The position numbers and the translations under genes were made by a program. DNA of 64,000 bases from an uncultured Desulfurococcaceae archaeon (GTDB lineage Archaea; Thermoproteota; Thermoprotei_A; Sulfolobales; NBVN01), in contig CAZZLT010000012.1 of the NCBI GenBank assembly GCA_964655125.1, positions 8,076 to 72,075 of the forward strand. The letters run 5' to 3'. Of this stretch, positions 9,038 through 64,000 are shown in pieces (the stretch's first letter is position 1; each line of letters opens with the position of its first letter). A model generated the notes under the pieces. The model did not search any database and had not been told where the DNA came from. It saw nothing but the letters and a program-made list of their open reading frames with translations.

Positions 9038-9108
9038 AATTAAAGAATATATACTTAACTACTAAAACATTAAAACTAATAAATCATTTAGAATAAGGAT
9101 TTAATAGA

Positions 9109-16489: not shown

Positions 16490-16504
16490 ACTATTTAATC
16501 CTAA

Positions 16505-16526
16505 CCTCAACATACTTATCTTGAGG
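16505..16526 (+). promoter_or_regulatory. Hairpin CCTCAA-N10-TTGAGG overlapping the GAGGT Shine-Dalgarno-like element of atpK
   Basis: 6-bp stem read directly from the sequence. GAGGT lies 8 nt upstream of the ATG at 16534. Confidence 0.2.
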
Positions 16527-16533
16527 TAGTTAT

Positions 16534-17025: not shown

Positions 17026-17032
17026 GAGAGTA

Positions 17033-18763: not shown

Positions 18764-18764
18764 T

Positions 18765-31745: not shown

Positions 31746-33624
31746 AGTCTAGTCCTAACTCGTAGAGTTTACCTACTTTAGGCTTACCTTCCTCATCCCA
31801 ACCAGCTATCTCGTAGAATAACTTAATCGCTTTCTCAAATAGATCACGGTCTATTCTCTGACCTTTCCTAGCACCAAACTCTAACCCTTCAAAGAATCTA
31901 TCTGGGAGTATGTCTTCCTTAACTGTAAATCCTTCACGTACGTTAAACGCTCTTATAAGGTTAAACCCTCTCTCACTAACTTTCATTAAAGACCATAAAC
32001 TCATCTGCCATCCAGTAGCTGCATTTACGATTTCAACTAAGTGGTTAGGTGTGAAGACTCCTGCTGAATGTGGTGTAAAGACAAATTTACATACTTGTAA
32101 ACAATCTTCTAAACCCCACCATAACATACCGTAGTATACGATCTTAACCTTCTCAGGACTAAGGTCTAACCTAGGTATAGGTCTTGTAATTCCTAAAGCT
32201 ACTAAATGCTCTGCAAACCTCTCAAATGATGGGTCGTGAGGTCCTTGTAGGTGGTCAGCACCTATAGGTGATAAAGCATAGTGTAGCCCGACACCTACCT
32301 TACCACGTGGTTCATGAAGTGGTATTTCCCTACCCTTAACATGCATTGCATACTTCTCAGCACCACGTCCGATAACCTCAGAAGCTCTCTTAACACCTTC
32401 AGCTAAGATATCACCGAATCCTTCACGGTTAACAACCATCTTCAATAACTTTATTAATGATTCACCATCACCGAACCTTACCTCTAACCCGTTAGTATCT
32501 TCCTTAGTTATAACCCCCCTCTCAAAGAGCTCCATAGCGAATGCGATTACGACACCAGCACTTATAGTATCGACGCCGTAGGAATTACATATCTGATTAG
32601 CGTAGGATATGATGTTTAAATCACCTACACCACAGAGTGAGCCGAAGGAGGCTATAGTCTCGTATTCAGGACCACCGTATGCTGGGTCTGTCTCATAAGG
32701 TATTTTAGCTTTAACATCTGGTTTACACCTTAGTGGGCAGGCAAAACAACCTGTCTTACCTACGAGTATAGTCTTATTTAATGTATCACCACTTAATACA
32801 TCTGCTTTATCGAATGAACCACCCCTGAAGTTCAGTGTTGGTAGTGTCCCATCATTATTAAGCGGTGTTACGATTTCAGGTGTACCGTAAGTACTCCTAG
32901 AGACTGCCCCAGGTTGTTTCCTCCAGTTCTCATTAAACCATCTAGTAAGTTCAACAAGCTTCTTCTCATCGTGGAACTTAACCTCCCTCTTACTACCCCT
33001 AACAACTACAGCCTTCAACCTCTTAGAACCCATAACAGCACCTAAACCACCCCTACCAGCTGCATACCTATGATCAAACATTATATTTGCAAACCTAACT
33101 AACTTCTCACCTGCAGGACCTATACATGCAACCCTAGCCAACGGCTCATTAAGTTCCTTCTTAATCTCCTCAACAGTATCCTTAGTTAACCTACCCCATA
33201 AATGTGTAGCATCCCTAAGCTCTACACGTCCATCCTTAACCCATAGATAAACTGGTTTCTCAGCCCTACCCTCAAATACTATTACATCAAAACCAGCATA
33301 CTTAAGCTCAGGTGCGAAGAACCCACCAGCCTCAGACTCACAGTAAGTATTAGTTAGTGGGGACTTACTAGCTACTAAAGTCCTATTAACACCTGGTACA
33401 GGTACTCCAGTAATAACACTAGTAGTGAAGACTAACTTATTCTCAGGACTTAAGGGATCTACACGTGGTTTAAGCTCTCTAAACAGTATATAAGCTGCTA
33501 AACCCCTACCACCTAAGTACTCCCTATAAAGTACCTCAGGTACTTCCTCAATACGTATACTACCAGTAGTAAGGTCTACACGGAGCCACCTACAGTTAAA
33601 TCCGTAAGACAAAAGACCACCCAT
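31717..33624 (-). CDS. aor: Tungstopterin aldehyde:ferredoxin oxidoreductase family enzyme
   Basis: 635 aa. WLRVDLTTGSIRIEEVPEVLYREYLGGRGLAAYIL N-terminus, CFACPLRC [4Fe-4S] ligands, and AOR-type C-terminal domains. Confidence 0.85.
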   Translation of the reverse strand: MGGLLSYGFNCRWLRVDLTTGSIRIEEVPEVLYREYLGGRGLAAYILFRELKPRVDPLSPENKLVFTTSVITGVPVPGVNRTLVASKSPLTNTYCESEAGGFFAPELKYAGFDVIVFEGRAEKPVYLWVKDGRVELRDATHLWGRLTKDTVEEIKKELNEPLARVACIGPAGEKLVRFANIMFDHRYAAGRGGLGAVMGSKRLKAVVVRGSKREVKFHDEKKLVELTRWFNENWRKQPGAVSRSTYGTPEIVTPLNNDGTLPTLNFRGGSFDKADVLSGDTLNKTILVGKTGCFACPLRCKPDVKAKIPYETDPAYGGPEYETIASFGSLCGVGDLNIISYANQICNSYGVDTISAGVVIAFAMELFERGVITKEDTNGLEVRFGDGESLIKLLKMVVNREGFGDILAEGVKRASEVIGRGAEKYAMHVKGREIPLHEPRGKVGVGLHYALSPIGADHLQGPHDPSFERFAEHLVALGITRPIPRLDLSPEKVKIVYYGMLWWGLEDCLQVCKFVFTPHSAGVFTPNHLVEIVNAATGWQMSLWSLMKVSERGFNLIRAFNVREGFTVKEDILPDRFFEGLEFGARKGQRIDRDLFEKAIKLFYEIAGWDEEGKPKVGKLYELGLDYVVSELYKS

Positions 33625-34408: not shown

Positions 34409-34795
34409 GTGTCTATAGATGAGGTTGAGATTTTAAGGGAGAGGGCTATCGCTTTTCTTAGGAATGCTGAGTACTTATATAGTATTAGTCAGTATGACTT
34501 AGCTATGTTTAGTCTTGAGCAATACTGTCAATTAATCCTTAAGTATAAACTCCTTATTAAGACTGGAACCTACCCTAGAACACATTCTATAACATACCTA
34601 CTTAAACTACTCTCTAAGATTAGTCAAGAGGTTAACATGTTGCTTGAGAATGAAGAAAACTTCATAATATTAACTAAGATTGAAGATGCGTATATAGGGT
34701 CTCGATACCTCCCAAGAAGATATGATGAGAAGGAAGTGAGGGTGGTGTTGAGATTTATTAAGGAGGTGTTTAACCCAGTTGTTGAAAGGATTTGA
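34409..34795 (+). CDS. HEPN-domain protein (toxin-type partner of MNT)
   Basis: 128 aa. YPRTHSITYLL and EDAYIGSRYLPRRY are typical HEPN (PF05168-like) motifs. Confidence 0.7.
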   Translation: MSIDEVEILRERAIAFLRNAEYLYSISQYDLAMFSLEQYCQLILKYKLLIKTGTYPRTHSITYLLKLLSKISQEVNMLLENEENFIILTKIEDAYIGSRYLPRRYDEKEVRVVLRFIKEVFNPVVERI

Positions 34796-35120
34796 CATAT
34801 ATGTTGAGTACTTTAGAAAACGTAGTGAATTAATGAGTAGGTTTAGTGAATTCTTAAGTAACGTTAGAGAAGATGTAGAGGGTATCATCCCTAATGCTGA
34901 GGTATACCTCTTCGGCTCATATGCTGAGGGTAGGGCAGTAGCTTCAAGTGATATTGATATATTAATCATAATTAATGAAGAGGATAGAGTTAATGCTGAG
35001 GAGGTGAAGACTGTAGTGAAGAGGAAGTATATTGAATATCCTGTAGAAGTTCATGTAGTTACTAAAGAAGAGTTTGAGAGATGGTATAGGAGATTCATAG
35101 GTAAGTTAGTTAAGATTTAG
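34779..35120 (+). CDS. Minimal nucleotidyltransferase (MNT) partner of HEPN
   Basis: LFGSYAEGRAVASSDIDILII (G-S-x10-D-x-D). Overlaps the HEPN gene by 17 nt. Confidence 0.75.
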   Translation: MLKGFDIYVEYFRKRSELMSRFSEFLSNVREDVEGIIPNAEVYLFGSYAEGRAVASSDIDILIIINEEDRVNAEEVKTVVKRKYIEYPVEVHVVTKEEFERWYRRFIGKLVKI

Positions 35121-35186: not shown

Positions 35187-35390
35187 TTATGGGGGATTAA
35201 CATCTTTGAACTTCACATCAGCTAGTTCTCCACTAACACCCCAATTCTCCTTAGGTACTTCCTGAATTATCACTTCTACAGCATGTGGTGGTATCCCAAG
35301 ATCTTCAAATACCTTAGTTACACCCTTAACAATCCTTATCTTAGCCTCCCTAGAAACACCACTCCACATATATACATGTATGACGGGCAT
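35187..35390 (-). CDS. 4-oxalocrotonate tautomerase-family protein
   Basis: 67 aa. Starts MPVIHVYMW (Pro-1 after Met removal) with a beta-alpha-beta pattern. Confidence 0.7.
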   Translation of the reverse strand: MPVIHVYMWSGVSREAKIRIVKGVTKVFEDLGIPPHAVEVIIQEVPKENWGVSGELADVKFKDVNPP

Positions 35391-35474
35391 ATAGATCCTA
35401 TAAATACTAACTTTAAGGTAAATTATATTTGATGAGGTGTTTAAGTATTCTAAGATGGTTCTAACTTAGTTAAC

Positions 35475-36131
35475 TTACCTCTTACTCTTTAACTCCTCAA
35501 CTAATTTCTTACATATATCTACTGCTACGATAGCGTTTTCCCCATACGCATCTGCACCAATCCTTTTAGCGAATTCCTCAGTTATTGGTGCACCACCAAC
35601 AATAACCTTAACCTTATCTCTTAAACCCTCCTTCTCTAAAGCTTCTATAACCTTCTTCATATTAATCATTGTTGATGTTAGTAACGCACTCATACCAACT
35701 ATATCCGGGTTATACTGTTTAACTGCTTCAACAAATTTTTGTGGTGGGACATCAACACCTAAGTCAATGAGTTCAAAACCATTTACCCTCAACATCGTAG
35801 CTACTAAATTCTTACCTATGTCGTGGATATCTCCTTCAACAGTACCGAGAATAACCCTCCCAATAGGTTTAACAACTTCTTTCTCCTTCATAACTAGAGG
35901 TTCGAGAATCTTCATAACCTCTTTAAAAATTTCTGAAGCTACGATAAGGTCGGATATGAAGTAATCACCCCTTTCAAACATATCACCAATAACTCTCATA
36001 CCCTCAGCTAAGGAATTAATAATATCTATAGGTTTTAATCCCTGATCAATAGCTTTCCTAACTAGTTCTAAAGTCTTATCCATATCGAGATTAACTAAAG
36101 AATCTCTTATCTCACTTAACATATACCTCAC
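35475..36131 (-). CDS. Corrinoid (B12-binding) methyl-carrier protein, MtaC/MtbC/MetH-cap+Rossmann type
   Basis: N-terminal helical cap, DxHxxG (GDIHDIGKN), SxL (MSALLTS) and GG (IVGGAPI). Confidence 0.85.
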   Translation of the reverse strand: MRYMLSEIRDSLVNLDMDKTLELVRKAIDQGLKPIDIINSLAEGMRVIGDMFERGDYFISDLIVASEIFKEVMKILEPLVMKEKEVVKPIGRVILGTVEGDIHDIGKNLVATMLRVNGFELIDLGVDVPPQKFVEAVKQYNPDIVGMSALLTSTMINMKKVIEALEKEGLRDKVKVIVGGAPITEEFAKRIGADAYGENAIVAVDICKKLVEELKSKR

Positions 36132-36162
36132 CTAAAACTCCTTACCTCACATAATATAAACT

Positions 36163-37461
36163 TCATTTTATTGGGTACCTCCCGTACTCGTATGCCGTTT
36201 TAAACATCGCTACTATGTTTTCCGGAGGTATTCCTGGTTGGATATTATGAATATTTGCGAATACAAACCCACCCCTAGGTGCGAATATTCTTATTAAATT
36301 CTTAACGTGTTTATTAAGTTCTTCAGGTTTTACGAATGGTAGTATATGTTGGTTATCTGCACCACCACCCCAGAAAGTTATTTGATCTCCATATTCTTTC
36401 TTGAGTTTTTCAGGTTCCATACCCTTAGCAGAAATCTGTACAGGGTTGATAATATCTAAACCAATATCTATAAACTCCTTAATCAACGGAAATATAGAGC
36501 CGTCAGAATGTAAGAAGGTAAATACTTTCGAATGTTTCTTAACGTAACTTATTATCTCCTCATACCTATACTTATAGAATTCCCTAAATACCTCAACACT
36601 TATTTGAGGACCTGTCTCAATACCCATATCATCATACGCTATTACCTGTACTTGAATATACTCACCAATAGCATCTATAATTTTCTTAATATTGTATAAC
36701 ATGACTTCAAATATATGATCAAGTATAGCGTCTGCTAGTGGTTTTCTAGATCTTAGATCTACAAACCACTTCCCCCAACCTCTAAGGGTTTGACCTCCAG
36801 CATGTAATCCTCGAAACGCACCTAAAGCAACTGGTGAACCCATAAAGGGGTTCACTAATGCGTAGTCAGTATTCTTGAATAAGTACTCAGCCTTCTTCTT
36901 AAGTACTTCAATAACATTATCTGAGACTTTACCTACGTCCCAATTAAATTTCTCTAAATCTTCAACAGTCCTCACATCTGCTAATACATGTTTTAACCCC
37001 CAAAAATAATACCCTGTCTTAGATATCTTACCGAATGGTCTACCCTCAGCATACCCTATAAACCCGTCCTCACACTCAATAACTTCAGCATATTTAGGCA
37101 TCTCAACATCAATACCGTACGGAGCCTTCCAAACCCAAAACTCATATTCTGAAACCTCCTTTAAGAGCCCATCTACACTAGTAAATCTATATGTATGTGG
37201 GTACGGTGCCATAGGTTCTAAAACCCTACTAATATTAATAACATCAATATGGAGTAGTTCTAGTATATCCTTATCAACTTCAGCAAGTTGTTGACCTACA
37301 TCTACGATTTTAGGGGGTTTCTCAGGAAGACTTAAATACTTCCTAAGCTCGTAATAAGCTTTAGCATGAATACCTGATACCCACGTCGCACCTAAATCTA
37401 TTGGAACCCTATCAGGTTCTTCATGTTTTAAAGTTAGAATTACACGTTCTCTAGGCTTCAT
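36163..37461 (-). CDS. UroD/MtaA-superfamily methyltransferase-like protein (no Cys zinc site)
   Basis: 432 aa. MKPRERVILTLKHEEPDRVPID N-terminus is typical of the URO-D-family methyltransferases. It reads FLHSDGSIFP where MtaA-type enzymes carry H-x-C. Confidence 0.6.
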   Translation of the reverse strand: MKPRERVILTLKHEEPDRVPIDLGATWVSGIHAKAYYELRKYLSLPEKPPKIVDVGQQLAEVDKDILELLHIDVINISRVLEPMAPYPHTYRFTSVDGLLKEVSEYEFWVWKAPYGIDVEMPKYAEVIECEDGFIGYAEGRPFGKISKTGYYFWGLKHVLADVRTVEDLEKFNWDVGKVSDNVIEVLKKKAEYLFKNTDYALVNPFMGSPVALGAFRGLHAGGQTLRGWGKWFVDLRSRKPLADAILDHIFEVMLYNIKKIIDAIGEYIQVQVIAYDDMGIETGPQISVEVFREFYKYRYEEIISYVKKHSKVFTFLHSDGSIFPLIKEFIDIGLDIINPVQISAKGMEPEKLKKEYGDQITFWGGGADNQHILPFVKPEELNKHVKNLIRIFAPRGGFVFANIHNIQPGIPPENIVAMFKTAYEYGRYPIK

Positions 37462-37578
37462 ACTCTTAAAAGACCCTAGTTAATCTCCTCATCAGGTCTT
37501 ATATTTCTACATCATCTTTAAATTAAGGTAGGATGAGTAAGACACTATTTTAATTTCATGTACAGTATTAGTAGGACT

Positions 37579-38553
37579 TCATACATATGTTAATCTCCTA
37601 CATACTTTAATTACCTTCTCTAGCTTCATTAATGCTAACCTATATTCCTCCTCACTATTACTTAGAGTCCCACGTAATCCTCCAAAACCACAATCACCAG
37701 ATATTAAGTCTACCCTCCCACCAGTAATGTTGTAGATTTTCTCTAGTAATGTGTAGGCCTCCTCCTCACTCTCTAACCTAGGATTTCTAGTACTTATAAT
37801 ACCTGGTGATATGATCTTATCATATTTCTCTAGTAATGACTTATCAAGTACGTCAATATTTGTAGGATTATCGTGGAATTCTAAGCTAAGATACTTAATC
37901 CTACTAACCTCTGCTAATATCTCCAGTATCCTCTTATGTATACGTCCACATACGTGGATACCGACCTCAACATTAGCTACATACTTAGCTATATAATCTA
38001 ATACTTCAACTATATCTGTATCACTATAGTTGTAGAGATTTCTTCGAGCACCGATGATGAATCCTAATGCAGGTTCATCAAGAAATACTATGTTATAACC
38101 TAAATCAGCCATATACTCTACAAAATATGAGACATACTCTTTAAGGAACCCCTTAACAACTTCATTATGAGTTAATAAGGTGTTTGAGAGTGTTGCTGAT
38201 TCTCTAGATAGGTATATACGGGAAGCTAATGTGAAAGGCCCTGTAATCGGTGCTCTAAGCCCTTTAAACCTTAACTTAAGCCTCATAATAACTTCAACTG
38301 CATACTTAGCTTCAGGTACATCTACAACACCACTCCAAGAACTGATATCCTTAGGAGAACCGTAGAAGAACCCCTTCTCATATACTAGTAAACCAGCTCT
38401 TACAAGAGGTTCTAAATAAATATCTATAAAACTCCTTAACTGAGGATAGGGTGGTACATCTAAACCTAAAGATGCTAAGTCAACAACAATTCTCTCAACA
38501 TTACTTAAGCTGTATTCAAGCGGGAAACTACCAACATGACTACTCCTTAACAA
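37579..38553 (-). CDS. Short (core) MetE-like zinc methyltransferase, cobalamin-independent methionine synthase C-terminal-domain family
   Basis: 324 aa. HVGSFP N-terminus. His-x-Cys (GIHVCG), then Glu 25 residues later (SLEFHD), then Cys 63 residues after that (SGDCGFG). This is the order and approximate spacing of the MetE Zn ligands. Confidence 0.65.
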   Translation of the reverse strand: MLRSSHVGSFPLEYSLSNVERIVVDLASLGLDVPPYPQLRSFIDIYLEPLVRAGLLVYEKGFFYGSPKDISSWSGVVDVPEAKYAVEVIMRLKLRFKGLRAPITGPFTLASRIYLSRESATLSNTLLTHNEVVKGFLKEYVSYFVEYMADLGYNIVFLDEPALGFIIGARRNLYNYSDTDIVEVLDYIAKYVANVEVGIHVCGRIHKRILEILAEVSRIKYLSLEFHDNPTNIDVLDKSLLEKYDKIISPGIISTRNPRLESEEEAYTLLEKIYNITGGRVDLISGDCGFGGLRGTLSNSEEEYRLALMKLEKVIKVCRRLTYV

Positions 38554-38843
38554 ACCTCATCACTAATATCTAGATAGGGAACCATATTTTAAGTATTAAT
38601 CATATGTTAAAATTAAATCTATATGAAAAACTATACTACGAAACAGTTTTAGGATTTAAAGTGTTTGAAGAAGGTCTTAAGAACATATAGTGCCTCTAGT
38701 AGATTTCTAACTAATGTAGATATGTGGATGACTTAAACTCCAAGTTGAAACAATATATTAATTTAGAACTACTTTATCAATGAGATGGAGTCTAAACTTA
38801 GGTAGTAGGTTATTAGTTATATCATAGTATTTAAGGTAGTGTG

Positions 38844-39737
38844 TTAATCTAGTGGTAGGGTTAATTCCTTCCTCCTTAATAAGTATCTGTAGGTAGTATA
38901 TAGTGTGTATACTGCTGGGAAGACTTCTTTAGATGCTTCTATAGGACCGTATAACACGAAGTCACATCCCATCACAATTGTCATTAGGTTTGATGTTAGT
39001 TCACATATTTTTACTCCTTCAGTACCGAATCTTTCTTTAAAAGCTTTTCTCTGTATTGATATTGCGTTATGTGCTCCAGAACCTACTGGTAGACCATATC
39101 TTCTCTTAATCTCTATAGCTGTCCTAACAGCTACTGTAAGTGATGGTAAATCTATTACGAAGGTATCTACAAGTACTTTCTCAATCCCAAACTCCTTACC
39201 CTTCCTAAGTAAGGTCTCTAAATTATCTATACGTGCCTTCATATCTACTACTTTATCAGTGTATAGTAGGTATACAGCTGCCCCCACATTATTCTCTTGT
39301 AGAATCCTAAATTCCTCATCTTTAGACTTAACTGTTAGTGAGTTATATACTACTCTATCAACTAGTCCAACCTCCCTAACATATCTTAGAGCAGTATTAG
39401 AGACTTCTATAGCACCTAAAGTATCAACTAGTATAGGTGCTTTAGTAGTACTTACAGTAAATTCAATGAACTTAACAATAGCTTCTGATGTAGACCCAAT
39501 AACATCTAACATAAATGGGAGTTTAGTCTTATCTGATAACTCCTCTACAGTTTTTATAAGTGTCTCAGCCTCAGTTTTATTGAAGATACCTTTAGACTCA
39601 TCCTCAACAATTTTATGTTTATGATAGAATATAGAGCCTATAAGAACAGGTGGGTTTTCCCCAGGTTGACCACCAACCCTTACACCACTAATTTCATAGG
39701 TAATTTGAGGTGTAGTGTACTTAAGCATATTAATCAC
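38844..39737 (-). CDS. mtrH: MtrH-like methyl-tetrahydromethanopterin:corrinoid methyltransferase
   Basis: 297 aa. YEISGVRVGGQPGENPPVLIGSIFY matches the MtrH N-terminal signature. There are no mtrA-G neighbours. Confidence 0.7.
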   Translation of the reverse strand: MINMLKYTTPQITYEISGVRVGGQPGENPPVLIGSIFYHKHKIVEDESKGIFNKTEAETLIKTVEELSDKTKLPFMLDVIGSTSEAIVKFIEFTVSTTKAPILVDTLGAIEVSNTALRYVREVGLVDRVVYNSLTVKSKDEEFRILQENNVGAAVYLLYTDKVVDMKARIDNLETLLRKGKEFGIEKVLVDTFVIDLPSLTVAVRTAIEIKRRYGLPVGSGAHNAISIQRKAFKERFGTEGVKICELTSNLMTIVMGCDFVLYGPIEASKEVFPAVYTLYTTYRYLLRRKELTLPLD

Positions 39738-39863: not shown

Positions 39864-40775
39864 ATGGTGTTTCACAACAGTAGTAAGCAGGTGTGTAAGG
39901 GTGGTAGACCTCGACGTATACGTATTAAGTTGTTTAAGAAGTCGTTTAAGTACTGGTTTCCGGGCTGTAATTTTGTTAGGGAGATTGTTAGTAGGTATAG
40001 GAGGTTTTTAGATGATGGGTCTATTATAGTTATTACTGAGAAAGCAGTTTCAGTCGCGTTAGGGAATATATATGATGAGAGTGTTATTAAGTTAGACTTT
40101 ACTTCTAAATACTTCACAAAGATTGTTAACTCATACCTTTGGGGCCGTATACTCTACAAGTCCTTCAGACGTGGTGATGATTTCCTAGAGCTTGTGGGGA
40201 GGGTTCCTTTAGAGTACTTAGCTATCCATAAGAAACTCTCACTTAAGTATGGAGGACCACTACATTTCATAAAACCGTATTCTGAAGGTGGTATAGATAC
40301 TACTAACCTACCATACTACTACGTCTCCCTACCCTTAAGAAATGCTGATAAGGTAGTTCAGGAAATTAGTGAGGATTTAACTAAGCTAGTAGGTAAGGAT
40401 ATCTACGTTCTACTCATAGATAGTGATAGGACATTCAAACCTAAGCATATATCATCAATAGCTATCTCTACAAGACCTTCATATGTGAAGGGTGTTATAG
40501 ACCTCGGTGGTCTAGGATATATTCTAGGACGTTTACTTACTAAGAGATTTACTGAGTACCCAACACCTGTAGCGTATGAGGGCTACTGGTTCGGCCTACC
40601 TAGAATACTTAAGATAGCTAGAATGGTTGAGAAATCTATTGGTTACGGACTCGGTAAATCAGCTATTGAGATGTTGAAGAACTTAGGTAAGAGTAGTTTT
40701 AATGATGTGAGGTGGGTGGATATGAATAAAGTTAAGCATTACCCTGTAGTTGTAGTTAGAGTTGAGAGGGTCTAG
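39864..40775 (+). CDS. Divergent CofE-superfamily (F420-0:gamma-glutamyl-ligase-like, COG1478-like) protein
   Basis: DGSIIVITEKAVSVALGN, GGIDTTNLP and VLLIDSDRTFKP parallel the CofE motifs (vv.s.KivSkaeGr, GiDaSN, DT.GR..R) but are degenerate. Confidence 0.45.
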   Translation: MVFHNSSKQVCKGGRPRRIRIKLFKKSFKYWFPGCNFVREIVSRYRRFLDDGSIIVITEKAVSVALGNIYDESVIKLDFTSKYFTKIVNSYLWGRILYKSFRRGDDFLELVGRVPLEYLAIHKKLSLKYGGPLHFIKPYSEGGIDTTNLPYYYVSLPLRNADKVVQEISEDLTKLVGKDIYVLLIDSDRTFKPKHISSIAISTRPSYVKGVIDLGGLGYILGRLLTKRFTEYPTPVAYEGYWFGLPRILKIARMVEKSIGYGLGKSAIEMLKNLGKSSFNDVRWVDMNKVKHYPVVVVRVERV

Positions 40776-41428
40776 GATGTATTCAACCCTATTATCCTGT
40801 AGTAATCATTAGTTGTAATCCAATTCCTCACTGACTTACTAGTCTTAATCTGTTCTACGAATTTATAGAACCATTTCCAATCTCTTTCATAGACATGGTA
40901 CGAATCAACTATATGTATATAATGACCTACATCAACCCCTAACTGTTGAGCTACATACCTCTGAAGTTCTGTAAATGCGTACATATTCATGAAGGCTGCT
41001 TTTAAAGCATCATTACTCCTCATATGTGCATGCATAACTAACTTACCATTAACTACTCTAAACCATAGTCTCTGAAGACATGGTGGGTGTTCTGATATTA
41101 AATCCTTCCATGGCTGCCAAGTTATTGCTTGTGCCCTCCTAGTGTAGGGAGTTTTCCTTAACTTCTCAATAACTTTCTCAATCTGGTCTACTACCCTCCC
41201 ATCAGGTAGTTTATATGAGAATAATCTCTCATGGTATGTATATTCAGACTTCTCAATTAAGTAGTCATGTGTACCCTTAATAACCTCATCAACATATTCT
41301 AGAAGACCTTTAAGAGAACCTGCTATAATACCCTTAAGATGTATTCTAGGCTCTGAGAAGGGGGATTTAACTAGGATTATTGCTGATGCATCAATAGATT
41401 TCTCACCATATTCAGTATCTATAATCAC
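40772..41428 (-). CDS. Thymidylate-synthase (ThyA)-superfamily protein, archaeal short type
   Basis: PPCLQRLWFRV, HMRSNDALKAAFMNMYAF and VDSYHVYERD correspond to the ThyA catalytic Cys, RSxD and DxHxY motifs. The conserved-looking N-terminus continues in frame to 41530 without a canonical start (see finding). Confidence 0.6.
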   Translation of the reverse strand: MIIDTEYGEKSIDASAIILVKSPFSEPRIHLKGIIAGSLKGLLEYVDEVIKGTHDYLIEKSEYTYHERLFSYKLPDGRVVDQIEKVIEKLRKTPYTRRAQAITWQPWKDLISEHPPCLQRLWFRVVNGKLVMHAHMRSNDALKAAFMNMYAFTELQRYVAQQLGVDVGHYIHIVDSYHVYERDWKWFYKFVEQIKTSKSVRNWITTNDYYRIIGLNTS

Positions 41429-42584: not shown

Positions 42585-43541
42585 TTAACTAGTTAATGCC
42601 TTCTCAAGAATATCGTAATTTACTTTACCTGAGACTAACGTACGTCCACTCCTAACATTATTAACGACTACGAGTGCGGGGGCAAATATTGATGGGTCAA
42701 CCTTATATAGGAAATCCCATCCATACTGATCAACTAATTCTGTAAAGGACTTACCGTAGTCTTTAGAGGCTAGGCTAGGTACTTTACTTACATACTCACT
42801 TAACTTTACATCATCTATGTAATCTACAGTATAGTATGTTATCCCTCCATAGAGTAACATATCATTTGATCTACCAGCCATTTTTAGAGAATCCTTATGT
42901 AGTGGTGCTATTGGGCAGACTCCGTAACCATATAGTATAGTCTTCAAGTCAAATTCTAATGTGTTTAGTTTGAATATCCCTGTTTCTACTACCCTAGCAC
43001 TAACCTGTACTGAACCTGCAGTACTTGCTGGTGAGACTAGTACTAAGTACAGGTTTTCAGTTTTGACTCTCACCTCATTACTGATGTACTTAACTACCTC
43101 ATCATCTGGGTACTTCTCAGTCTCTAGAACTAATACAGCTTCATCAGATTCCTCACTATACCCTAACTTATCAAATAATTTCTTAGGCTTCCTAGCTAAT
43201 ACCCTAGCAGGACCACTACCATTAGCAAAGAAGTCCTTAACACTAACTCTCCAACCAGCTAATTGTGAAGCCATACATGCTTCTATCGGGTAATCTGTTG
43301 AGACTTCAACAGCTGGTACGTAGTAATCCTTAATCTTATAATTCGTAATACCTACATTCGCTAACCCCCCTAAACATATCTTAGATACGTAAATACCTGC
43401 TTCAAAACTTGATGGAGTCTTCACACCAGCATCAACTACTGTTGCTCCAGCAATCCTCATACTCGTTATCTTAAGCTCCTTCTCCTTAGCGAGCATCTCA
43501 CTAACTAACCTAACTGTTAATTTATTCATTGATAAAGTCAT
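42585..43541 (-). CDS. mch: Methenyl-tetrahydromethanopterin cyclohydrolase
   Basis: 318 aa. N-terminal VDAGVKTPSSFEAGIYVSKICLGGLA and overall Mch-like sequence. The ATGA start/stop overlaps fwdC. Confidence 0.85.
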   Translation of the reverse strand: MTLSMNKLTVRLVSEMLAKEKELKITSMRIAGATVVDAGVKTPSSFEAGIYVSKICLGGLANVGITNYKIKDYYVPAVEVSTDYPIEACMASQLAGWRVSVKDFFANGSGPARVLARKPKKLFDKLGYSEESDEAVLVLETEKYPDDEVVKYISNEVRVKTENLYLVLVSPASTAGSVQVSARVVETGIFKLNTLEFDLKTILYGYGVCPIAPLHKDSLKMAGRSNDMLLYGGITYYTVDYIDDVKLSEYVSKVPSLASKDYGKSFTELVDQYGWDFLYKVDPSIFAPALVVVNNVRSGRTLVSGKVNYDILEKALTS

Positions 43542-44413
43542 AACTCTATACTCACCTCCTCAATTAGAGATCTATAATGTTCTAATAATTCTTTATTATC
43601 ATTATATGATATGTAGAGGAGGCCTTTACCACCTACAACTACATCCCCGATAAACAGCATGAATGGTTTATCAAGTTTAATACCTCTAACAGAGATTGAA
43701 GGTACTGTTGAGTCAACGTAGAAACTAGGTAAGATAGTATCTACCCTACCACCTATTATCACCCTACCACCACTCATACCAGCACCAGGGTATAAACCAC
43801 AACATCCCTTCACAACTATAGTCCCTCCAAGCATATCAGAACCTACTAAGTTACCAGCACCCCCCTCTACCATTATCATACCTCTCTCCATCCCAACACC
43901 TACTTCAGAACCTGCATTACCGTGAACTACTATAGTCCCACCCTTCATACCCTTACCTAATTTCTCCCCAGGTAACTTACCACCTAATTTATGACCTACA
44001 TTACCGTAGACCTCTATATTCCCATCCTTCATCTTAGCCCCAACATAATCTCTAGCACTTCCCTCAACAACTATACTACCTCCCCTCATCTTATAACCTA
44101 CTAAGTGACCAGCATCACCTTTAACACTTATCTTACCCTTACTCATTCTATAACCGATAAAGCATAACTTATTAGATCCTGTCTTGAACGTAATAGTTAT
44201 TTGAGCTGGGTCTGAAGGTGCTTTCTCAGGTCCTTCAACATCGAATAACTCAGATAGACGTGTTTTCCTCCCTCCCTCCCATACAACTATGTTCTTTATA
44301 TCAGTTAATTCCTTACCGCTGAATTCATCAGGTGTTATATGTCTAACATCGATTAGGACTGTAGGTTTAGTCTTAAGGTGTAGAGAGTATGTTACTACGG
44401 ACATATCACCCAC
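43538..44413 (-). CDS. fwdC: Formylmethanofuran dehydrogenase subunit C
   Basis: Repeated G-x-x-G-x-x-M-x-G-G beta-helix units (VGYKMRGGSIVVEG, VGAKMKDGNIEVYG, GKGMKGGTIVVHG, and more). Confidence 0.85.
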   Translation of the reverse strand: MGDMSVVTYSLHLKTKPTVLIDVRHITPDEFSGKELTDIKNIVVWEGGRKTRLSELFDVEGPEKAPSDPAQITITFKTGSNKLCFIGYRMSKGKISVKGDAGHLVGYKMRGGSIVVEGSARDYVGAKMKDGNIEVYGNVGHKLGGKLPGEKLGKGMKGGTIVVHGNAGSEVGVGMERGMIMVEGGAGNLVGSDMLGGTIVVKGCCGLYPGAGMSGGRVIIGGRVDTILPSFYVDSTVPSISVRGIKLDKPFMLFIGDVVVGGKGLLYISYNDNKELLEHYRSLIEEVSIEL

Positions 44414-46133
44414 CTCCTAACTTAGTACTAATAGGTATTTCTACAGCTTTCCTTAACTCATACTTTTCTATAGGGAATGACTCTAAAGTTATTGAGTAGT
44501 ACTCCTTAAACTTCACCTTAAGGAATCTATCTAATTCTCTCTTTAAGTCTTCAGGTATTTCTGGTTTGACATAGTATGTACTCCCATATACAGTCTTAAC
44601 TACCTCACCCTCCTTAACAACTACTTCACCGTCCTTAATCACTAACCAAGCTCTCTTAAACGCCTTAACGAACTTATCATATTCTCTACTTAGGTCTACC
44701 TCCTTCGGGTTTAAATCGTAGATAGCTATATCAGCATCTGCACCTACACCTAAATGACCTTTAAACTTATCCAGACCGAGTAGTTTAGCTGGGGCTGCCC
44801 TCGTCATAATCGCTACATCATATAGTGAGAACTCAGTATCTACTGATGGTAGGGCTGACTTCCTTAACGCACGTTGATTAACTTTCTTCATAAGGTCTTC
44901 ACGTGCTTTCTTACTAATAAGCCATGATAACATGACCGGATAGTCTTTAAACGGTCCGGCATTAGGATGATCTGTTGTTGGGATTACCCTCCAAGGATCT
45001 TTAGTTAAGAGTGCTACTTCTAATCCTATAACCCACTGAATAGTGTTTACGTAATTACTCTTCTTATACTTATAAGGTACTATACCAGCTGCTGACTCAA
45101 CCTCAGTATCAGCGTTAGCCCACTTCCATCTTGTTAAGTGGTATAGTACGTATTCGAATGGTGCGTCTGCAGTCATAGTTGTAGCAGGTTCCCCAAGGAT
45201 AACTTGTCCTAGGTCTAAAGTTATGTAGGGGTATGTCTTCATAGCCTTAGCTATATCCTCACCACCACTTTCAAGAGTTGCCCAACTATCTCCTTTATAC
45301 CCTGTAAACTGTACGTGAGTGATGTGTAGGACTGGACCCCCACTCATCTGCGGTATATCCTTAGTTATATCCATAGTCTTTAGAGTTGTTAGGTAATTAC
45401 CTGGGTAACCAAGTCTATTACAGTGGAGATGCATTTTATGAGGTATGTTTAGTAGTTGAGCAGCCCTACCTATCTCTGTAATTATATTTCTTGGAGTGAT
45501 GTTATATGTAGGGATCTGATCATCTATATCTACACCCTTACCGGTTAAGACCCAGGCAACGTCTGAACCTGGATCAACTAGTTTTAACGCGAATGTCTTA
45601 GTAGTGTAGAGTAACCAGGCTAAGTACGTAGCAAGTAGTTCTCTTAAACCTTCAGTGATTAAGTCTAGAGCTAACCAATTAGAATCAACTAATACGAATG
45701 CTGCCTTATCTATCATAGGAATATCATTTAATTCCTCATGAGTATGTCTAGTCTTAATAGGTGGTGTTGCTGGTTCAACTACTAATGTATAACCCATCCT
45801 CGCATACCCATACCCTATCCTAAAGACGTTAGGTACTGTAAGTCCTGTCTCAGCTCTACGGTAGGGTAATTCATGTGGTTTATTAGTTAGGTAGTGGTCT
45901 TCAGGTCTCATAAGCCTACCGATATTAACTTTAGGTCCAGCGATATGGCTATGTATATCTACACCACCAGACATCACGACCTTACCTCTAGCATCAATTA
46001 CTAACGCCTTCTTCAGATCTATCTGTGATGGGTCAACTACCTTACCGTCCTTTACAGCAATATCTAATACTTCACCGTTAATCCCGTTAATCGGGTCGTA
46101 TACGAAACCGTTTCTAATGAGTATCTCACTCAT
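44406..46133 (-). CDS. fwdA: Formylmethanofuran dehydrogenase subunit A (amidohydrolase)
   Basis: MSEILIRNGFVYDP...GGVDIHSHIAGPKV metal-binding motif. About 575 aa. The track start (GTG at 46142) is 3 codons upstream. It overlaps fwdDB and fwdC. Confidence 0.85.
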   Translation of the reverse strand: MSEILIRNGFVYDPINGINGEVLDIAVKDGKVVDPSQIDLKKALVIDARGKVVMSGGVDIHSHIAGPKVNIGRLMRPEDHYLTNKPHELPYRRAETGLTVPNVFRIGYGYARMGYTLVVEPATPPIKTRHTHEELNDIPMIDKAAFVLVDSNWLALDLITEGLRELLATYLAWLLYTTKTFALKLVDPGSDVAWVLTGKGVDIDDQIPTYNITPRNIITEIGRAAQLLNIPHKMHLHCNRLGYPGNYLTTLKTMDITKDIPQMSGGPVLHITHVQFTGYKGDSWATLESGGEDIAKAMKTYPYITLDLGQVILGEPATTMTADAPFEYVLYHLTRWKWANADTEVESAAGIVPYKYKKSNYVNTIQWVIGLEVALLTKDPWRVIPTTDHPNAGPFKDYPVMLSWLISKKAREDLMKKVNQRALRKSALPSVDTEFSLYDVAIMTRAAPAKLLGLDKFKGHLGVGADADIAIYDLNPKEVDLSREYDKFVKAFKRAWLVIKDGEVVVKEGEVVKTVYGSTYYVKPEIPEDLKRELDRFLKVKFKEYYSITLESFPIEKYELRKAVEIPISTKLGGG

Positions 46134-47877
46134 ACACAACACCTAACCTGGCTTTAACCTTCTCAACTAATCTCTTCAATACCTCCGAGTCAGGTAAGAC
46201 CCCTACTGGCGGGTCAACAACCTTCTTTAACCTAATAGCTACTTCATCCATCCTATAAGCAGTCCCCTCACACTCTATCCCAACGTAAGCACCAGGTATT
46301 ATGACATCAGCGAATGCTGTAGTTAAAGACCACTTAGCATCAATAACTACGACAGGTATTTTAGATAGGTGTTCAACTGCTTTTCTAGGTAGGTGGGCTA
46401 CAGGGTCACTAGCAATAATTAATGCAGCATCTACATCACCATTAGCTAGTAAGTCAGTAGTACTAGTTACTCCAATAATCATTCTTGGAAATCCTCTAGA
46501 ATAATCAACAGCGTAGGGGTAGTCAGTAATCCATAAAGATACTTGATTTGCTCCAGCAACATTGTAGTGACCTCTCATCGGTATTATAGCAAATTTAGTC
46601 CATTCATTAAGTTCTTGAACAAGTCTTATCACAGCAACTAAGTTCTTATACTTAACACCTGACATCGTTAACCCTACACCGAAGAATATAACACCATACC
46701 TTGCAGTCTTCATCATCTCAGCTAACTCAAGGACTTTCTCCCTCGGTACACCAGCAACAGTAGGTGTTTCAATATCGAGATCTTTAATTACCATCCTAAG
46801 CGCAGTTAATAACTCGTAGTCTCTACCAGGTTCAACCTGTATAAACATATCAGCTAAGTTAGCTGTAGGAGTTCTCCTAACATCAACAACTACTACCTTC
46901 CTCTCCTTCCTCCCCTTAATAAACCTCCCTTCACGTAAGACAGTCCTAGCAATATGATTTACATGTGCTTCTAACGGGTTACAACCCCAGAATATCACTA
47001 AGTCAGCTAAGTTAATCGCTACCCCGAAGGTACATCTAACAGTACCGACTTCCTGAACTGCAAGTGCTGTAGGTCCGTGGCAGAAGACTGAAGTATTATC
47101 TACTACACCATGTGTTAATTCTGCGAGTTCGATAGCGTATCTATTAGCTTCTACATCTGTGTTAGATAATCCGAATATTAACGGGTATTTAGAACTTACT
47201 AGGATATCAGCTGCTTTATCTAATGCTTTATCTAAGCTAACTTCAACAAGCTTACCCTCCTCCCTCACGTACGGTTTTAAGATCCTATGCTTATGATAGT
47301 TTAAGAATTTTGCAGAGGATATAGCACACCCTCCTACATTCTTTACTATTCTATTACCGTCAACTTCTATGACTAGATGATCGCATAAATCACCACAGAA
47401 GGGACATACTACATTCTCTACTACTCTCTTCTCACCTGATTTAAGCGGTATATCCTCTACGTAGGTATTTAAATGTTTCACACCAAGTAATTTAAGTACA
47501 TCTACTAACGTAGTTAGGGGTTCGTCAGTAGACTCAACAAAAACTTTAACTCCTTTTAGGTGAGGCATTCCAGTAGCATCGGTATTAGGGTCTGTTAACA
47601 TGTTAGCCCAAGGACCCATAGGTATGAATACCTGTCCTTTAGGAATACCATTATTAGGTCTTACCCTTAAAACCACTACACCGTACTCGTTATAGACTTT
47701 AACACGGTCTTTTACACTAAGGTCTGAGATGTCATCAGGGTTCATCTCCGCAATCGCTACTGCATCAAAGTACTTCCTACCCCACTTACCCTCACTCTCC
47801 ATACTAATACCCTGCGTTAAAGACCTCCCAGTATTTAGTACAAATAACTTCTTACTCCTTAACTTCTCCTCACTCAA
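46126..47877 (-). CDS. fwdB: Formylmethanofuran dehydrogenase fused subunits D (N-terminal) and B (C-terminal), Cys type
   Basis: Residues about 10-125 are FwdD-like (LNTGRSLTQG, IPMGPWAN, TGMPHLKG). The rest is FwdB-like (CPFCGDLCDH Fe-S motif; FCHGPT Cys-His at the Mo/W-ligand position). There is no in-frame TGA. Confidence 0.8.
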   Translation of the reverse strand: MSEEKLRSKKLFVLNTGRSLTQGISMESEGKWGRKYFDAVAIAEMNPDDISDLSVKDRVKVYNEYGVVVLRVRPNNGIPKGQVFIPMGPWANMLTDPNTDATGMPHLKGVKVFVESTDEPLTTLVDVLKLLGVKHLNTYVEDIPLKSGEKRVVENVVCPFCGDLCDHLVIEVDGNRIVKNVGGCAISSAKFLNYHKHRILKPYVREEGKLVEVSLDKALDKAADILVSSKYPLIFGLSNTDVEANRYAIELAELTHGVVDNTSVFCHGPTALAVQEVGTVRCTFGVAINLADLVIFWGCNPLEAHVNHIARTVLREGRFIKGRKERKVVVVDVRRTPTANLADMFIQVEPGRDYELLTALRMVIKDLDIETPTVAGVPREKVLELAEMMKTARYGVIFFGVGLTMSGVKYKNLVAVIRLVQELNEWTKFAIIPMRGHYNVAGANQVSLWITDYPYAVDYSRGFPRMIIGVTSTTDLLANGDVDAALIIASDPVAHLPRKAVEHLSKIPVVVIDAKWSLTTAFADVIIPGAYVGIECEGTAYRMDEVAIRLKKVVDPPVGVLPDSEVLKRLVEKVKARLGVVYE

Positions 47878-47897
47878 GGTGTATACCCCATAACAGT

Positions 47898-48833
47898 CTA
47901 ACCTAACTTAACATCAACGTCTTTAACTACTTCTAAAGCTTCTCTTAGGTAGAAATGATAAGGTCCTAACTTACCCCCGTAATTACCTGCAGAAATCATT
48001 AACACCCCCGGTACCTGTACAGCTGCTTTAATCGCTACACCCATAGCTCTTAACACATACTCCCTCCTTAAACCATTAATTACGATCTCATAGACAGAAT
48101 TCACACCTTCAGGTATCTTACTCTCCTTCACAACCCCTCTAAGAGTTGGGCAGTATAGGTGGTTAGTCGTTGCTCTTAACTTCGGATACTTGAGAGAACC
48201 TACTTTAGACCCAGACCTAACTATACCTCCTGGGAAGGGTGTGATAACACCCTTAACATACTTCCTAATTGCCTTCACAGCCCTCTCAGCAGCTTCTAAA
48301 CCTGATTCTGAGTTCTTAGCAAGTATTAGTATATTCCCTCCAGCAACACCCTTTAAAACCCCTACAGAATCCTCAACTATGAACTCCCCCTCCATAACAG
48401 GTATCCTCCAAACCTTCCTCCCGTAAAGTGTATCTTCCTTCTCAAACCCATCCCCGAACTTCGCAAGTGCCCTACCTATACTCATCTTCCTCTTAATCTT
48501 GGGAAGACCGTCGAACAACGCTGTTGTTGGACATGTTAAAATACACTGCCCTATACGTACTAAAGTAACGAGTTTTAAACTAGCTAAATCACTATGGTAT
48601 ATCTGTATATACGTACCAGGCCTCCCATCAGGTGTTATATCTGGAGATACGAATACCTCAATATCACATTCTCCTGGGGAAGCTATTACTGATGTACCGA
48701 AGCCAGTAGCTTTTAACGCAGCGGTATAAGCCCATCTCTTAGTTAAAGCTGTTATTAATAAGCGTGTAGCGTACATAGGGAAGGCTTCTGCAAATGTATC
48801 TTCAATAATAACATCTCCAAGTTTAATTATCAT
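47898..48833 (-). CDS. ftr: Formylmethanofuran:tetrahydromethanopterin formyltransferase
   Basis: 311 aa. IEDTFAEAFPMYATRLLITA N-terminus is characteristic of Ftr. Confidence 0.85.
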   Translation of the reverse strand: MIIKLGDVIIEDTFAEAFPMYATRLLITALTKRWAYTAALKATGFGTSVIASPGECDIEVFVSPDITPDGRPGTYIQIYHSDLASLKLVTLVRIGQCILTCPTTALFDGLPKIKRKMSIGRALAKFGDGFEKEDTLYGRKVWRIPVMEGEFIVEDSVGVLKGVAGGNILILAKNSESGLEAAERAVKAIRKYVKGVITPFPGGIVRSGSKVGSLKYPKLRATTNHLYCPTLRGVVKESKIPEGVNSVYEIVINGLRREYVLRAMGVAIKAAVQVPGVLMISAGNYGGKLGPYHFYLREALEVVKDVDVKLG

Positions 48834-63847: not shown

Positions 63848-63892
63848 TAGTTTTAGTGTTATGAGTATAAAACTAAGGTGTTCCCTGTAGTA

Positions 63893-64000
63893 ATGGTGGT
63901 TAAACTGCCGATAATCATGTTAAGACCTGGGGATGTTAATGTAGAGTCTGAACGAGGTTCTACACTACTTCAAGTGGTTCAGAGGGTGGGGATACCTCTA
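63893..64000 (+). CDS. 5' end of an ORF running off the window; possibly a 2Fe-2S ferredoxin-type N-terminal domain
   Basis: My translation is MVVKLPIIMLRPGDVNVESERGSTLLQVVQRVGIPL. This is the beta-strand/'G.tLL....GI.l' pattern that precedes the Cys cluster in plant-type ferredoxin domains. The cluster itself is not in the window. Confidence 0.2.
   Translation, partial: MVVKLPIIMLRPGDVNVESERGSTLLQVVQRVGIPL

Follow-up and report, generated by a model that had tools for sequence, protein, structure and literature searches.

A corrinoid-dependent methyl-transfer gene cluster of a Desulfurococcaceae archaeon and its core MetE-like protein family: a probable soluble methyl-transfer hub

In this study, we analyzed a gene cluster for corrinoid-dependent methyl transfer that lies in a 64,000-nucleotide stretch of DNA (the window) from an uncultured Desulfurococcaceae archaeon (contig CAZZLT010000012.1, positions 8,076 to 72,075 of the forward strand). 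The cluster encodes an MtrH-like protein, a MetE-like protein, a member of the uroporphyrinogen decarboxylase (UroD) superfamily and a corrinoid protein. These proteins probably form a soluble methyl-transfer hub around the one corrinoid protein in a Desulfurococcaceae-like hyperthermophile using tetrahydromethanopterin (H4MPT). This reading is carried by the computed protein families, folds and catalytic residues, by an orthology-level likeness to MtoA and MtoC, and by gene neighborhoods that are conserved among related genomes.

Results

MetE-like protein and its gene neighborhoods

The MetE-like protein matches the Pfam family Meth_synt_2 (E 3.7e-9) and contains the motifs GSFP at residue 8, PQLR at 37, DEP at 159, HVC at 200, LEFHD at 224 and DCG at 287. 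The Zn ligands H200, C202, E225 and C288 are invariant in 30 homologs of 44–78% identity, and the same holds for the homocysteine-binding residues S9, Q38 and D159, which, following the residue roles given by Price et al., are the counterparts of Escherichia coli MetE Ser433, Glu484 and Asp599 (PMC7857596). All five checked motifs are present in 102 of 120 homologs, and in the family profile HxC/E/C and DEP lie in register with MetE of Thermotoga maritima. The MetE-like order and spacing of His-x-Cys, Glu and Cys, which a preliminary description of this DNA had read from the letters, is thereby borne out, and the check for missing Zn ligands that it had proposed found all four kept, together with the complete homocysteine-binding triad. 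The top Foldseek match of the AlphaFold2 (AF2) model (pLDDT 96) is a MetE structure with Zn and homocysteine (TMq 0.70), the top matches comprising MetE C-terminal halves and MesD (3rpd). Neither an N-terminal pterin-binding domain in the protein nor a Meth_synt_1 gene among its neighbors was found. Based on these features, we propose that the protein is a core MetE, with a predicted function as methyl-corrinoid:homocysteine methyltransferase.

Searches of PDB sequences with single sequences returned nothing meaningful for the MetE-like or the UroD-like protein, and the distant matches of both came from family profiles and AF2 models. The MetE-like protein stays below every NCBIfam methionine-synthase cut-off (PRK00957, 62.5 vs. 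258 bits; PRK06052, 61.6 vs. 387 bits; PRK04326, 44.3 vs. 406 bits); its best score, about 62 bits, is to the MesA-like model PRK00957, a true member of which (P0322) reaches only about 80 bits against the MetE-like family profile. Among 1.84 billion proteins, this profile matched 57 representatives at E <= 1e-30, and all members of the family come from Desulfurococcales or other Thermoproteota. As judged by the NCBIfam model scores, the MetE-like proteins are thus a small family of their own, set apart from MesA–MesD.

For the genomic context, 71 species-level GTDB loci holding a member of this family were fetched and their flanks were searched within 6 kb of the MetE-like gene. Corrinoid-protein genes accompany it in 37 of the 71 loci (20 of the 40 whose sequence extends 4 kb or more to either side), RACo genes in 33, MtrH-like genes in 21, homologs of the non-pyrrolysine MttB type in eight and a UroD-like gene in one, the closest relative. 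The corrinoid gene usually comes together with RACo and MtrH-like genes, or else with the MttB homolog. The corrinoid neighborhood is kept down to about 40% MetE-like identity, in genomes labeled Staphylothermus, Thermogladius, Pyrodictiaceae and Zestosphaera. A common module, found in genomes labeled Staphylothermus, Thermogladius, Pyrodictiaceae and Desulfurococcaceae, consists of an MtrH-like gene followed by RACo and corrinoid-protein genes, which are encoded on the other strand and point away from the MetE-like gene. In locus L086, the MetE-like gene is convergent and directly follows a UroD/corrinoid gene pair; the linkage of MetE-like and corrinoid genes thus survives rearrangement, because the gene has a different orientation there and is still located beside the corrinoid gene. 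Taken together, the conserved neighborhoods support the prediction of a MetE-like enzyme fed by a dedicated corrinoid protein, i.e., a split MetH analog in function, as had been suggested beforehand from the combination of MtrH, corrinoid and core-MetE genes.

The MtrH-like proteins of the MetE-like loci are 28–35% identical to that of the window, and those encoded beside RACo (L008, L036–L081) form a second, more divergent MtrH clade (227 bits against NF002142, cut-off 287). Genomes labeled Zestosphaera combine MetE-like, MttB, corrinoid-protein and RACo genes: in loci labeled Zestosphaera and relatives (L009, L015–L022, L027), the MetE-like gene adjoins genes for an MttB-superfamily protein, a corrinoid protein and RACo. 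The MttB homolog of these loci scores 302 bits, compared to a cut-off of 525 for the trimethylamine (TMA) enzyme. By analogy, the Zestosphaera-type loci resemble the bacterial MtgBCD system, in which betaine demethylation is tied to methionine synthesis, and seem to be its archaeal equivalent. A neighbor-joining tree places the MetE-like clade of the window as sister to the MttB-type clade, and the UroD-like gene fills the slot that is held by the MttB homolog in this sister clade.

MtrH-like protein, corrinoid protein and RACo

The MtrH-like protein matches PF02007 over its full length (E 3.6e-87). It passes the cut-off of the NCBIfam model NF002142, “MtrH family protein” (339 vs. 287 bits), and fails that of TIGR01114, the mtrH equivalog of the Mtr complex (236 vs. 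271 bits). An alignment spanning 96% of its length gives 55% identity to protein P0480 of Methermicoccus shengliensis, which matches the same NCBIfam model and is encoded between mtoB2 and mtoD in the operon mtoC-B1-B2-A-D; because of this location in the MtoC-MtoB1-MtoB2-MtoA-MtoD operon, P0480 is identified as MtoA. MtoA was shown to demethylate CH3-Co(III)-MtoC with a pterin as acceptor (PMC8630106). Further named relatives come from genomes labeled Ignisphaera, Nezhaarchaeota, Jordarchaeales and Archaeoglobi. The corrinoid and UroD-like genes are located within 3.5 kb on the same strand, and the open reading frames (ORFs) of the 64-kb window, scanned or precomputed, yielded no mtrA-G, mcr, mer, mtd or cdh. 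By these scores and identities, the protein is an enzyme of the MtoA type and not a subunit of the Mtr complex, and methyl-corrinoid:H4MPT activity is predicted.

The canonical Mtr context was rejected as a candidate, TIGR01114 staying below its cut-off and the nearest characterized relative being MtoA. The preliminary description had likewise placed the gene outside this context, which agrees with the failed equivalog, the passed paralog model and the lack of mtrA-G and mcr in the window, and its check of whether the protein nests inside bona fide Mtr proteins came out negative. Its term “orphan MtrH” holds insofar as the protein stands outside the Mtr complex, whereas the function is not an orphan one but that of the known MtoA type. 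One could still regard the gene as a remnant of the canonical Mtr complex of a methanogen or methanotroph, or as a subunit split off from it, in line with the full-length PF02007 match. This explanation has next to no probability in our view, considering not only the two cut-offs and the missing mtr and mcr genes but also the nearest named relatives, i.e., Ignisphaera- and Nezhaarchaeota-labeled proteins and those of Archaeoglobus and M. shengliensis, and the origin of all related loci from Desulfurococcales or other Thermoproteota.

The corrinoid protein consists of a B12-binding_2 cap and a B12-binding Rossmann domain (PF02607 and PF02310; E 1e-17 and 5e-32) with the motifs DIHDIG at residue 98, SAL at 145 and GG at 176. 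It is 43% identical to MtoC and scores 213.6 bits against TIGR02370, just under the cut-off of 215.3; against region 655–859 of TIGR02082 (MetH) it reaches 150 bits, its B12 domain being homologous to that of MetH. The sequence GGTGAGGT is found 3 nt before the ATG of its gene, which carries a Shine-Dalgarno-like sequence and is located 31–40 bp downstream of the UroD-like gene.

The start of a RACo gene was mapped to the end of the window at 63878, 24 kb from the cluster. In a near-identical public contig (L085), RACo comprises 625 aa with the domains Fer2, RACo_linker, Raco_middle and RACo_C_ter, and the public homolog carries an N-terminal 2Fe-2S ferredoxin; an ATP-grasp protein near the window end differs from this contig by one residue.

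UroD-like protein

The UroD-like protein matches URO-D in Pfam with residues 163–426 only (E 1.1e-17). Its AF2 model (pLDDT 93) is a UroD/MtaA TIM barrel with a beta-rich insertion at residues ~90–147 that contributes seven extra beta-strands; UroD and MtaA are the top folds in Foldseek, with MtaA 4ay7 as best match (E 3.7e-13). The motif HSDG at residue 318 outlines a putative metal site, H318-S-D320…H405. The family consensus reads LHSCGS…HNIQ, with His-x-Cys at the Zn-ligand positions of MtaA: among 101 homologs, the second motif position is Cys in 79 and Asp in 22, and the distal His is kept in 91. Judged from these positions, it is plausible that H318, D320 and H405 can still form a metal site. 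The protein had been described as Cys-less; the HSDG motif is indeed present, but a single Cys exists at residue 130, and the motif loses its diagnostic meaning as the relatives are mostly H-x-C.

Several known enzymes were considered as relatives. An MtoB/MtvB-type O-demethylase is not supported by sequence, the likeness to MtoB being marginal and the three ligand positions of the UroD-like protein being absent from MtoB. CdmB (9rui) gave a weak match to the family hidden Markov model (E 0.039) and is not among the top 50 Foldseek matches of the UroD-like model. The scores against the MtaA/CmuA models are low (NF004889, 22 vs. 244 bits; TIGR01463, 18.5 vs. 235 bits), and the protein has no His-x-Cys…Cys Zn site; clusters of MtaA-like protein (Mlp) were rejected as the home of the gene, as the identity to MtaA of ~17% is under the 25% criterion (PMC10418091). 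The UroD-like family comprises 3607 matches, among which no characterized representative was found.

UroD-like and corrinoid genes also lie together in L013 (83% and 88% identity), L086 (84% and 87%) and L087 (65% and 79%), and a corrinoid gene is also adjacent to the more distant members in L092 and L153. Members of the UroD superfamily with ~420–430 aa and N-terminal insertions are described as methyltransferase I (MT I), namely MtoB, MtvB, OdmB and CdmB; their substrates are aryl methyl ethers and chloromethane, and only part of these enzymes contain Zn (PMC13222342). We lean slightly towards the view that the UroD-like protein, too, is the methyl loader of its adjacent corrinoid protein. 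Genes for UroD-like proteins of 400–430 aa are often found among carbohydrate genes, including a galactokinase gene, and frequently in tandem arrays of paralogs (L087, L011, L088–L165); at the UroD-like locus L087 (1–7813), genes for a GH78 rhamnosidase, a sulfatase and a PfkB kinase are located alongside. One idea from these surroundings is that the family could demethylate O-methyl sugars.

Cluster layout and surroundings

The cluster proteins have exact copies on public metagenome contigs, and the nearest GTDB genomes are metagenome-assembled genomes of Desulfurococcaceae. All five co-directional minus-strand ORFs announced for 35187–39737 are present (Table 1), the named families are confirmed by Pfam and NCBIfam scans of all five proteins, and the motifs quoted for the MetE-like, corrinoid, UroD-like and 4-oxalocrotonate tautomerase (4-OT) proteins were all located in the translations. 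For the MtrH-like and the corrinoid gene, the ATG starts at 39728 and 36122 are preferred over 39737 and 36131, based on public gene calls and Shine-Dalgarno-like sequences.

Table 1. Coordinates of the cluster genes and of associated features in the window.
Feature	Position	Strand	Remarks
MtoA-type MtrH-family methyltransferase	38844..39728	-	294 aa from ATG at 39728; alternative GTG start 39737
Spacer between MtrH-like and MetE-like genes	38554..38843	-	290 bp; T5 tract, TATA-like boxes
Core (single-domain) MetE-like Zn methyltransferase (predicted)	37579..38553	-	324 aa, TTG start; Meth_synt_2
UroD-superfamily methyltransferase-like protein	36163..37461	-	432 aa; URO-D
Methyltransferase-cognate corrinoid protein	35475..36122	-	215 aa from ATG at 36122; PF02607 + PF02310
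4-Oxalocrotonate-tautomerase-family protein	35187..35390	-	67 aa; PF01361
RACo-type reductive activator, 5' end	63878..64000	+	gene runs off window
mch, fwdC, fwdA, fwdB(D), ftr	42585..48833	-	H4MPT/methanofuran C1 pathway context

The intergenic gaps measure 290, 117, 31–40 and 84 bp in cluster order. In the 290-bp spacer, TATA-like A/T boxes come after a T5 tract that is located ~70 nt ahead of the MetE-like start, and GTGATGAGGT stands directly before the TTG start of the MetE-like gene. It is a single copy in the window, and a mobile element or repeat was ruled out as it is unique in the window and the related loci. Judged by its sequence, the spacer is probably a terminator and promoter region, and at least two transcription units are likely in the cluster, because a T5 tract is followed by TATA-like boxes. 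The genes are co-directional as described before, but the single operon is not supported. In the relative L013, the gap between the MtrH-like and MetE-like genes is only ~40–70 bp. An Rfam scan of the window gave one tRNA only and no riboswitch. Inside the MtrH-like gene, there is an antisense ORF (38905–39624, +) of 239 aa, rich in Ser, Thr and Leu, which is most likely a mechanical artifact of coding-strand composition.

The 4-OT protein begins with MPVIHV, i.e., with Pro directly after the initiator Met, and matches PF01361 (E 1e-13) and, slightly below the cut-off of 56.9 bits, TIGR00013 (54.7 bits). A TATA-like box of its own precedes the gene and a T5 tract follows it, and no homolog was found in 77 related loci, the syntenic L013 included. 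Its proposed membership in the system was dropped on account of the apparent promoter of its own and the missing homologs, and it is probably a bystander. In L013, a DUF1847 gene (9043–9669, -) follows the corrinoid gene, convergent, where the window has 4-OT.

At a distance of 3 kb from the cluster, the mch/fwd/ftr region begins (mch, TIGR03120, 376 bits; fwdC, TIGR03122, 229 bits; precomputed Pfam matches MCH, GXGXG, Amidohydro_3, Molybdopterin and FTR). It belongs to an extended island of genes for H4MPT and methanofuran (41670–63847), with the biosynthesis genes for methanopterin and methanofuran at 50–63 kb of the window. Besides MptN (41670–42572) and mch-fwdCAB-ftr, the island encodes a PfkB-like kinase, MptA/GCHY-1 (50467–51366), a GHMP kinase, CitG, a pterin-binding DUF6513 protein (53517–55076), a flavoprotein with Fer4, a DUF1464 protein, 4HFCP synthase (MfnB-like), an AA kinase, and hydantoinase-A-like, His_biosynth and ATP-grasp proteins. 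Divergent from the MtrH-like gene, a homolog of the F420-0:gamma-glutamyl ligase CofE is encoded within 39864–41428 (weak match, E 8e-11) and adjoined by a methanogen-type thymidylate synthase, a synteny that is kept in L013 (2999–4798); the CofE-like protein might act on a pterin cofactor rather than on F420.

On the other side, a toxin-antitoxin-like pair of HEPN and minimal nucleotidyltransferase genes (34409–35120, +) is located directly downstream of the cluster, in opposite orientation. A tungsten-type aldehyde:ferredoxin oxidoreductase (AOR; AFOR_N/AFOR_C) is encoded nearby (31717–33624, -). AOR genes likewise occur close to the UroD-like gene of a Bathyarchaeota locus and to the MtrH gene of an Ignisphaera-labeled locus (L011, L167), a proximity that may be coincidental. 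Finally, a complete A/V-type ATPase operon occupies 14495–22559 (+) with subunits I, c, E, C-like, F, A, B and D.

Discussion

In the hub that we favor, RACo would reduce Co(II) of the corrinoid protein to Co(I), and the corrinoid protein would cycle between Co(I) and CH3-Co(III). Methylation of Co(I) would be catalyzed by the UroD-type enzyme, the MtrH-like enzyme or both. The UroD-type enzyme would load the carrier from a methylated substrate, for which an O-methyl compound is the leading guess, and the methyl group could then end up in methionine or on H4MPT. The MtoA-type enzyme would exchange methyl groups between the corrinoid protein and H4MPT, delivery to H4MPT representing an alternative outlet, while the MetE-like enzyme would transfer the methyl group from the corrinoid protein to Zn-activated homocysteine, yielding methionine. 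MtrH-like protein, corrinoid protein, MetE-like protein and RACo would in this way do the job of the four MetH modules, with pterin and homocysteine modules that are not homologous. We infer each of these transfer steps and its direction, and likewise that three enzymes share the carrier and what the UroD-type enzyme acts on. A more far-reaching reading, which we hold with less than even confidence, is that the MetE-like proteins represent a fifth family of core methionine synthases, whose donor would be an MtbC/MtoC-type carrier with its own RACo and interchangeable donor modules: MtrH-like (CH3-H4MPT), non-pyrrolysine MttB (a quaternary amine) or, in this lineage, a His/Asp/His UroD-type enzyme.

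Several observations weigh against the hub. About half of the MetE-like loci, mostly Ignisphaera-labeled or deep-branching and Thermoproteales-like, have no corrinoid gene nearby, and the 290-bp spacer speaks against one shared transcript. The window contains neither mer nor mtd, which are needed to join methyl-H4MPT to mch/ftr/fwd. The corrinoid protein of the window is 79–88% identical to the UroD-linked corrinoid proteins of L013, L086 and L087, and ~40–55% identical to the carriers beside MetE-like genes elsewhere; because it is closer to the former, the UroD-like enzyme may be its primary partner. For this enzyme, in turn, the likeness to MtoB is marginal: BLASTP against MtoB1/MtoB2 aligns the termini only (E 2e-4), and hhalign gives a probability of 92% and an E-value of 6.6e-7 over 218 columns with MtoB. 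In the wider UroD-like family, only 9 of 80 loci hold a corrinoid gene within 8 kb, and the neighbors are mostly sugar genes, e.g., for GH38 mannosidases, sugar kinases, ABC permeases for sugars and xylose-isomerase-like TIM barrels.

The position of the carrier among UroD-linked ones would also fit an Mto-like catabolic system, in which a UroD-type MT I, the corrinoid protein and the MtoA-type methyltransferase II (MT II) deliver methyl groups to H4MPT and the MetE-like protein is a housekeeping neighbor that obtains its methyl group from elsewhere, e.g., from methyl-pterin directly or from the corrinoid iron-sulfur protein (CoFeSP) of the Wood-Ljungdahl pathway. The resemblance of the corrinoid and MtrH-like proteins to MtoC and MtoA is in line with this option. 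In Ignisphaera-labeled genomes, moreover, the MetE-like gene mostly stands alone, adjoining pterin-biosynthesis genes in Ignisphaera aggregans, and Ignisphaera is reported to carry Cdh (PMC6421429); for MesB and MesC, Price et al. predicted CoFeSP as donor (PMC7857596). Nevertheless, we consider a mere housekeeping neighbor unlikely. In 37 of the 71 species a corrinoid gene accompanies the MetE-like gene, which itself encodes no pterin-binding domain, and in some lineages the only genes nearby are those for MtrH-like protein, RACo and corrinoid protein, which have no evident purpose but feeding the MetE-like enzyme.

As to the UroD-type enzyme, its possible role as corrinoid loader, raised in the preliminary description, finds support in the gene adjacency of close relatives, but not in the wider family. 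It could instead be an MtaA-like MT II serving a further nucleophile, or a corrinoid-free sugar enzyme that became linked in this lineage only. The closest structure is the MT II enzyme MtaA, whose H-x-C ligand positions are kept in the family and absent from MtoB; a corrinoid gene within 8 kb is missing from 71 of the 80 loci of the wider family, and their neighbors are enriched for sugar genes, as in the case of L087 with its rhamnosidase, sulfatase and kinase. On the other hand, the corrinoid adjacency is tight and conserved in the window, L013, L086 and L087, and extends to L092 and L153. The hub already has two acceptors, H4MPT and homocysteine, and without a loader the donor side would consist of MtrH running in reverse. 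In addition, the corresponding slot of the sister clade is held by a homolog of MttB, an MT I family, and Zn is found in some O-demethylating MT I enzymes (PMC13222342). Overall, a non-loading role appears doubtful to us.

The vicinity of the C1-oxidation genes mch, ftr and fwd, 3 kb away, raises the question of whether the pathway could run in reverse, with methionine or a methylthio compound demethylated by the MetE-like protein and the methyl group passed via the corrinoid and MtrH-like proteins to H4MPT and oxidized via mch/ftr/fwd, as part of a peptide-fermenting metabolism. Desulfurococcales live largely by peptide fermentation, and MtsA is an example of thioether demethylation that depends on a corrinoid. 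However, moving a methyl group from a thioether onto H4MPT costs ~30 kJ/mol, and methanogens need the Na+-coupled membrane complex Mtr for it, whereas nothing membrane-bound is encoded at the cluster. With mer and mtd not in the window either and a homocysteine-binding triad that fits synthesis equally well, we regard the reverse direction as highly improbable and retain the hub that supplies methionine synthesis.

What could the cluster mean for core methionine synthases? The presence of carrier, activase and pterin methyltransferase beside the MetE-like gene in about half of 71 species suggests a methyl source for a core MetE, and the donor question narrows to four specific proteins amenable to in vitro reconstitution. 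This question reportedly dates from the work of Schröder and Thauer on Methanothermobacter. So far, the donor that supplies core methionine synthases with methyl groups in the cell has been inferred, not shown (Deobald 2020, PMC7005905; Price 2021, PMC7857596). Likewise, the role of orphan MtrH genes in non-methanogenic Thermoproteota was called unclear in 2019 (PMC6421429), and the cluster suggests a role for some of them. The variable donor slot, occupied by MtrH-like, MttB or UroD-type enzymes, parallels the shared-corrinoid system of marine bacteria and hints at a coupling of methyl scavenging and methionine synthesis in hot-spring archaea. If the reading as a fifth core family were true, hyperthermophilic Thermoproteota would make methionine directly from environmental methyl groups, and the UroD-type enzyme might be an anaerobic O-methyl-sugar demethylase, given the sugar-gene neighborhoods. 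With its thousands of members, the UroD-type family is a target in its own right.

Comparison with known systems

The backbone of MtrH-like, corrinoid and UroD-type proteins is the known Mto architecture and not new (PMC8630106), and both core and split or shared-corrinoid methionine synthases are known already (PMC7857596, PMC12478193). What appears new, with no description found in the searchable literature, is the separate MetE-like family, its neighborhood with dedicated carrier, RACo and MtrH-like protein, and the interchangeable donor slot. The MetE-like/corrinoid/RACo/MtrH-like cluster of Desulfurococcales was not found described either in this literature, which is thin on subscription-journal papers, and two supplementary files of Price et al. 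contain no entry for Ignisphaera, Staphylothermus, Thermogladius or Desulfurococcus (PMC7857596).

With MtoABCD of M. shengliensis and Archaeoglobus fulgidus (PMC8630106, PMC8359953), the cluster shares an MtrH-family MT II acting on H4MPT (55% identity to MtoA), a cap-plus-Rossmann corrinoid protein (43% to MtoC), a UroD-superfamily enzyme of ~420–430 aa encoded beside the corrinoid gene, and a RACo-type activase in the genome. The UroD-type enzyme of the window is no MtoB ortholog, their likeness being confined to the termini and the H…D/C…H positions being absent from MtoB. Furthermore, the window cluster contains a core-MetE gene, its RACo gene lies 24 kb off, and adjacent transporter genes of the major facilitator superfamily (MFS) or MatE type, as present in the M. 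shengliensis operon, are missing.

MtaA/MtbA and Mlp (PMC10418091) are the closest systems with regard to the UroD-like protein, since its model superposes best on MtaA 4ay7 and the family motif LHSCG aligns with LHICG of MtaA. It differs in that the identity is ~17%, ~90 extra residues are present as a beta-rich insertion, Asp replaces the first Cys and His the distal Cys, and no coenzyme M pathway is evident in the window.

Like MesA–MesD (PMC7857596) and the core-MetE of Dehalococcoides (PMC7005905), the MetE-like protein consists of one ~320-aa domain of the MetE C-terminal type with the same Zn ligands; it also has the Ser/Gln/Asp homocysteine triad, with Gln as in MesA and MesC, and a methyl-corrinoid donor is expected. 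It differs in scoring far below the NCBIfam cut-offs and in belonging to a small family restricted to Thermoproteota. While MtrA or CoFeSP are the predicted donors of MesA, MesB and MesC, the conserved neighbor of the window family is an MtbC/MtoC-type carrier, along with RACo and an MtrH-like protein.

As in MetH and split MetH, a pterin methyltransferase, a B12 carrier, a Zn-dependent homocysteine methyltransferase and a reactivation function come together, and the B12 domain is homologous. However, the pterin module of the window is of the MtrH type and not Pterin_bind, the homocysteine module of the MetE type and not S-methyl_trans, and reactivation relies on an ATP-dependent RACo instead of an S-adenosylmethionine-binding domain; the pterin is H4MPT-like and the hosts are anaerobic hyperthermophilic archaea. 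The system of the window may therefore work like MetH, but it is not a member of MetH, only the B12 module being homologous. A parallel to the Zestosphaera-labeled loci is offered by MtgBCD of Ruegeria pomeroyi, where glycine betaine demethylation and methionine synthesis share a single corrinoid protein (PMC12478193).

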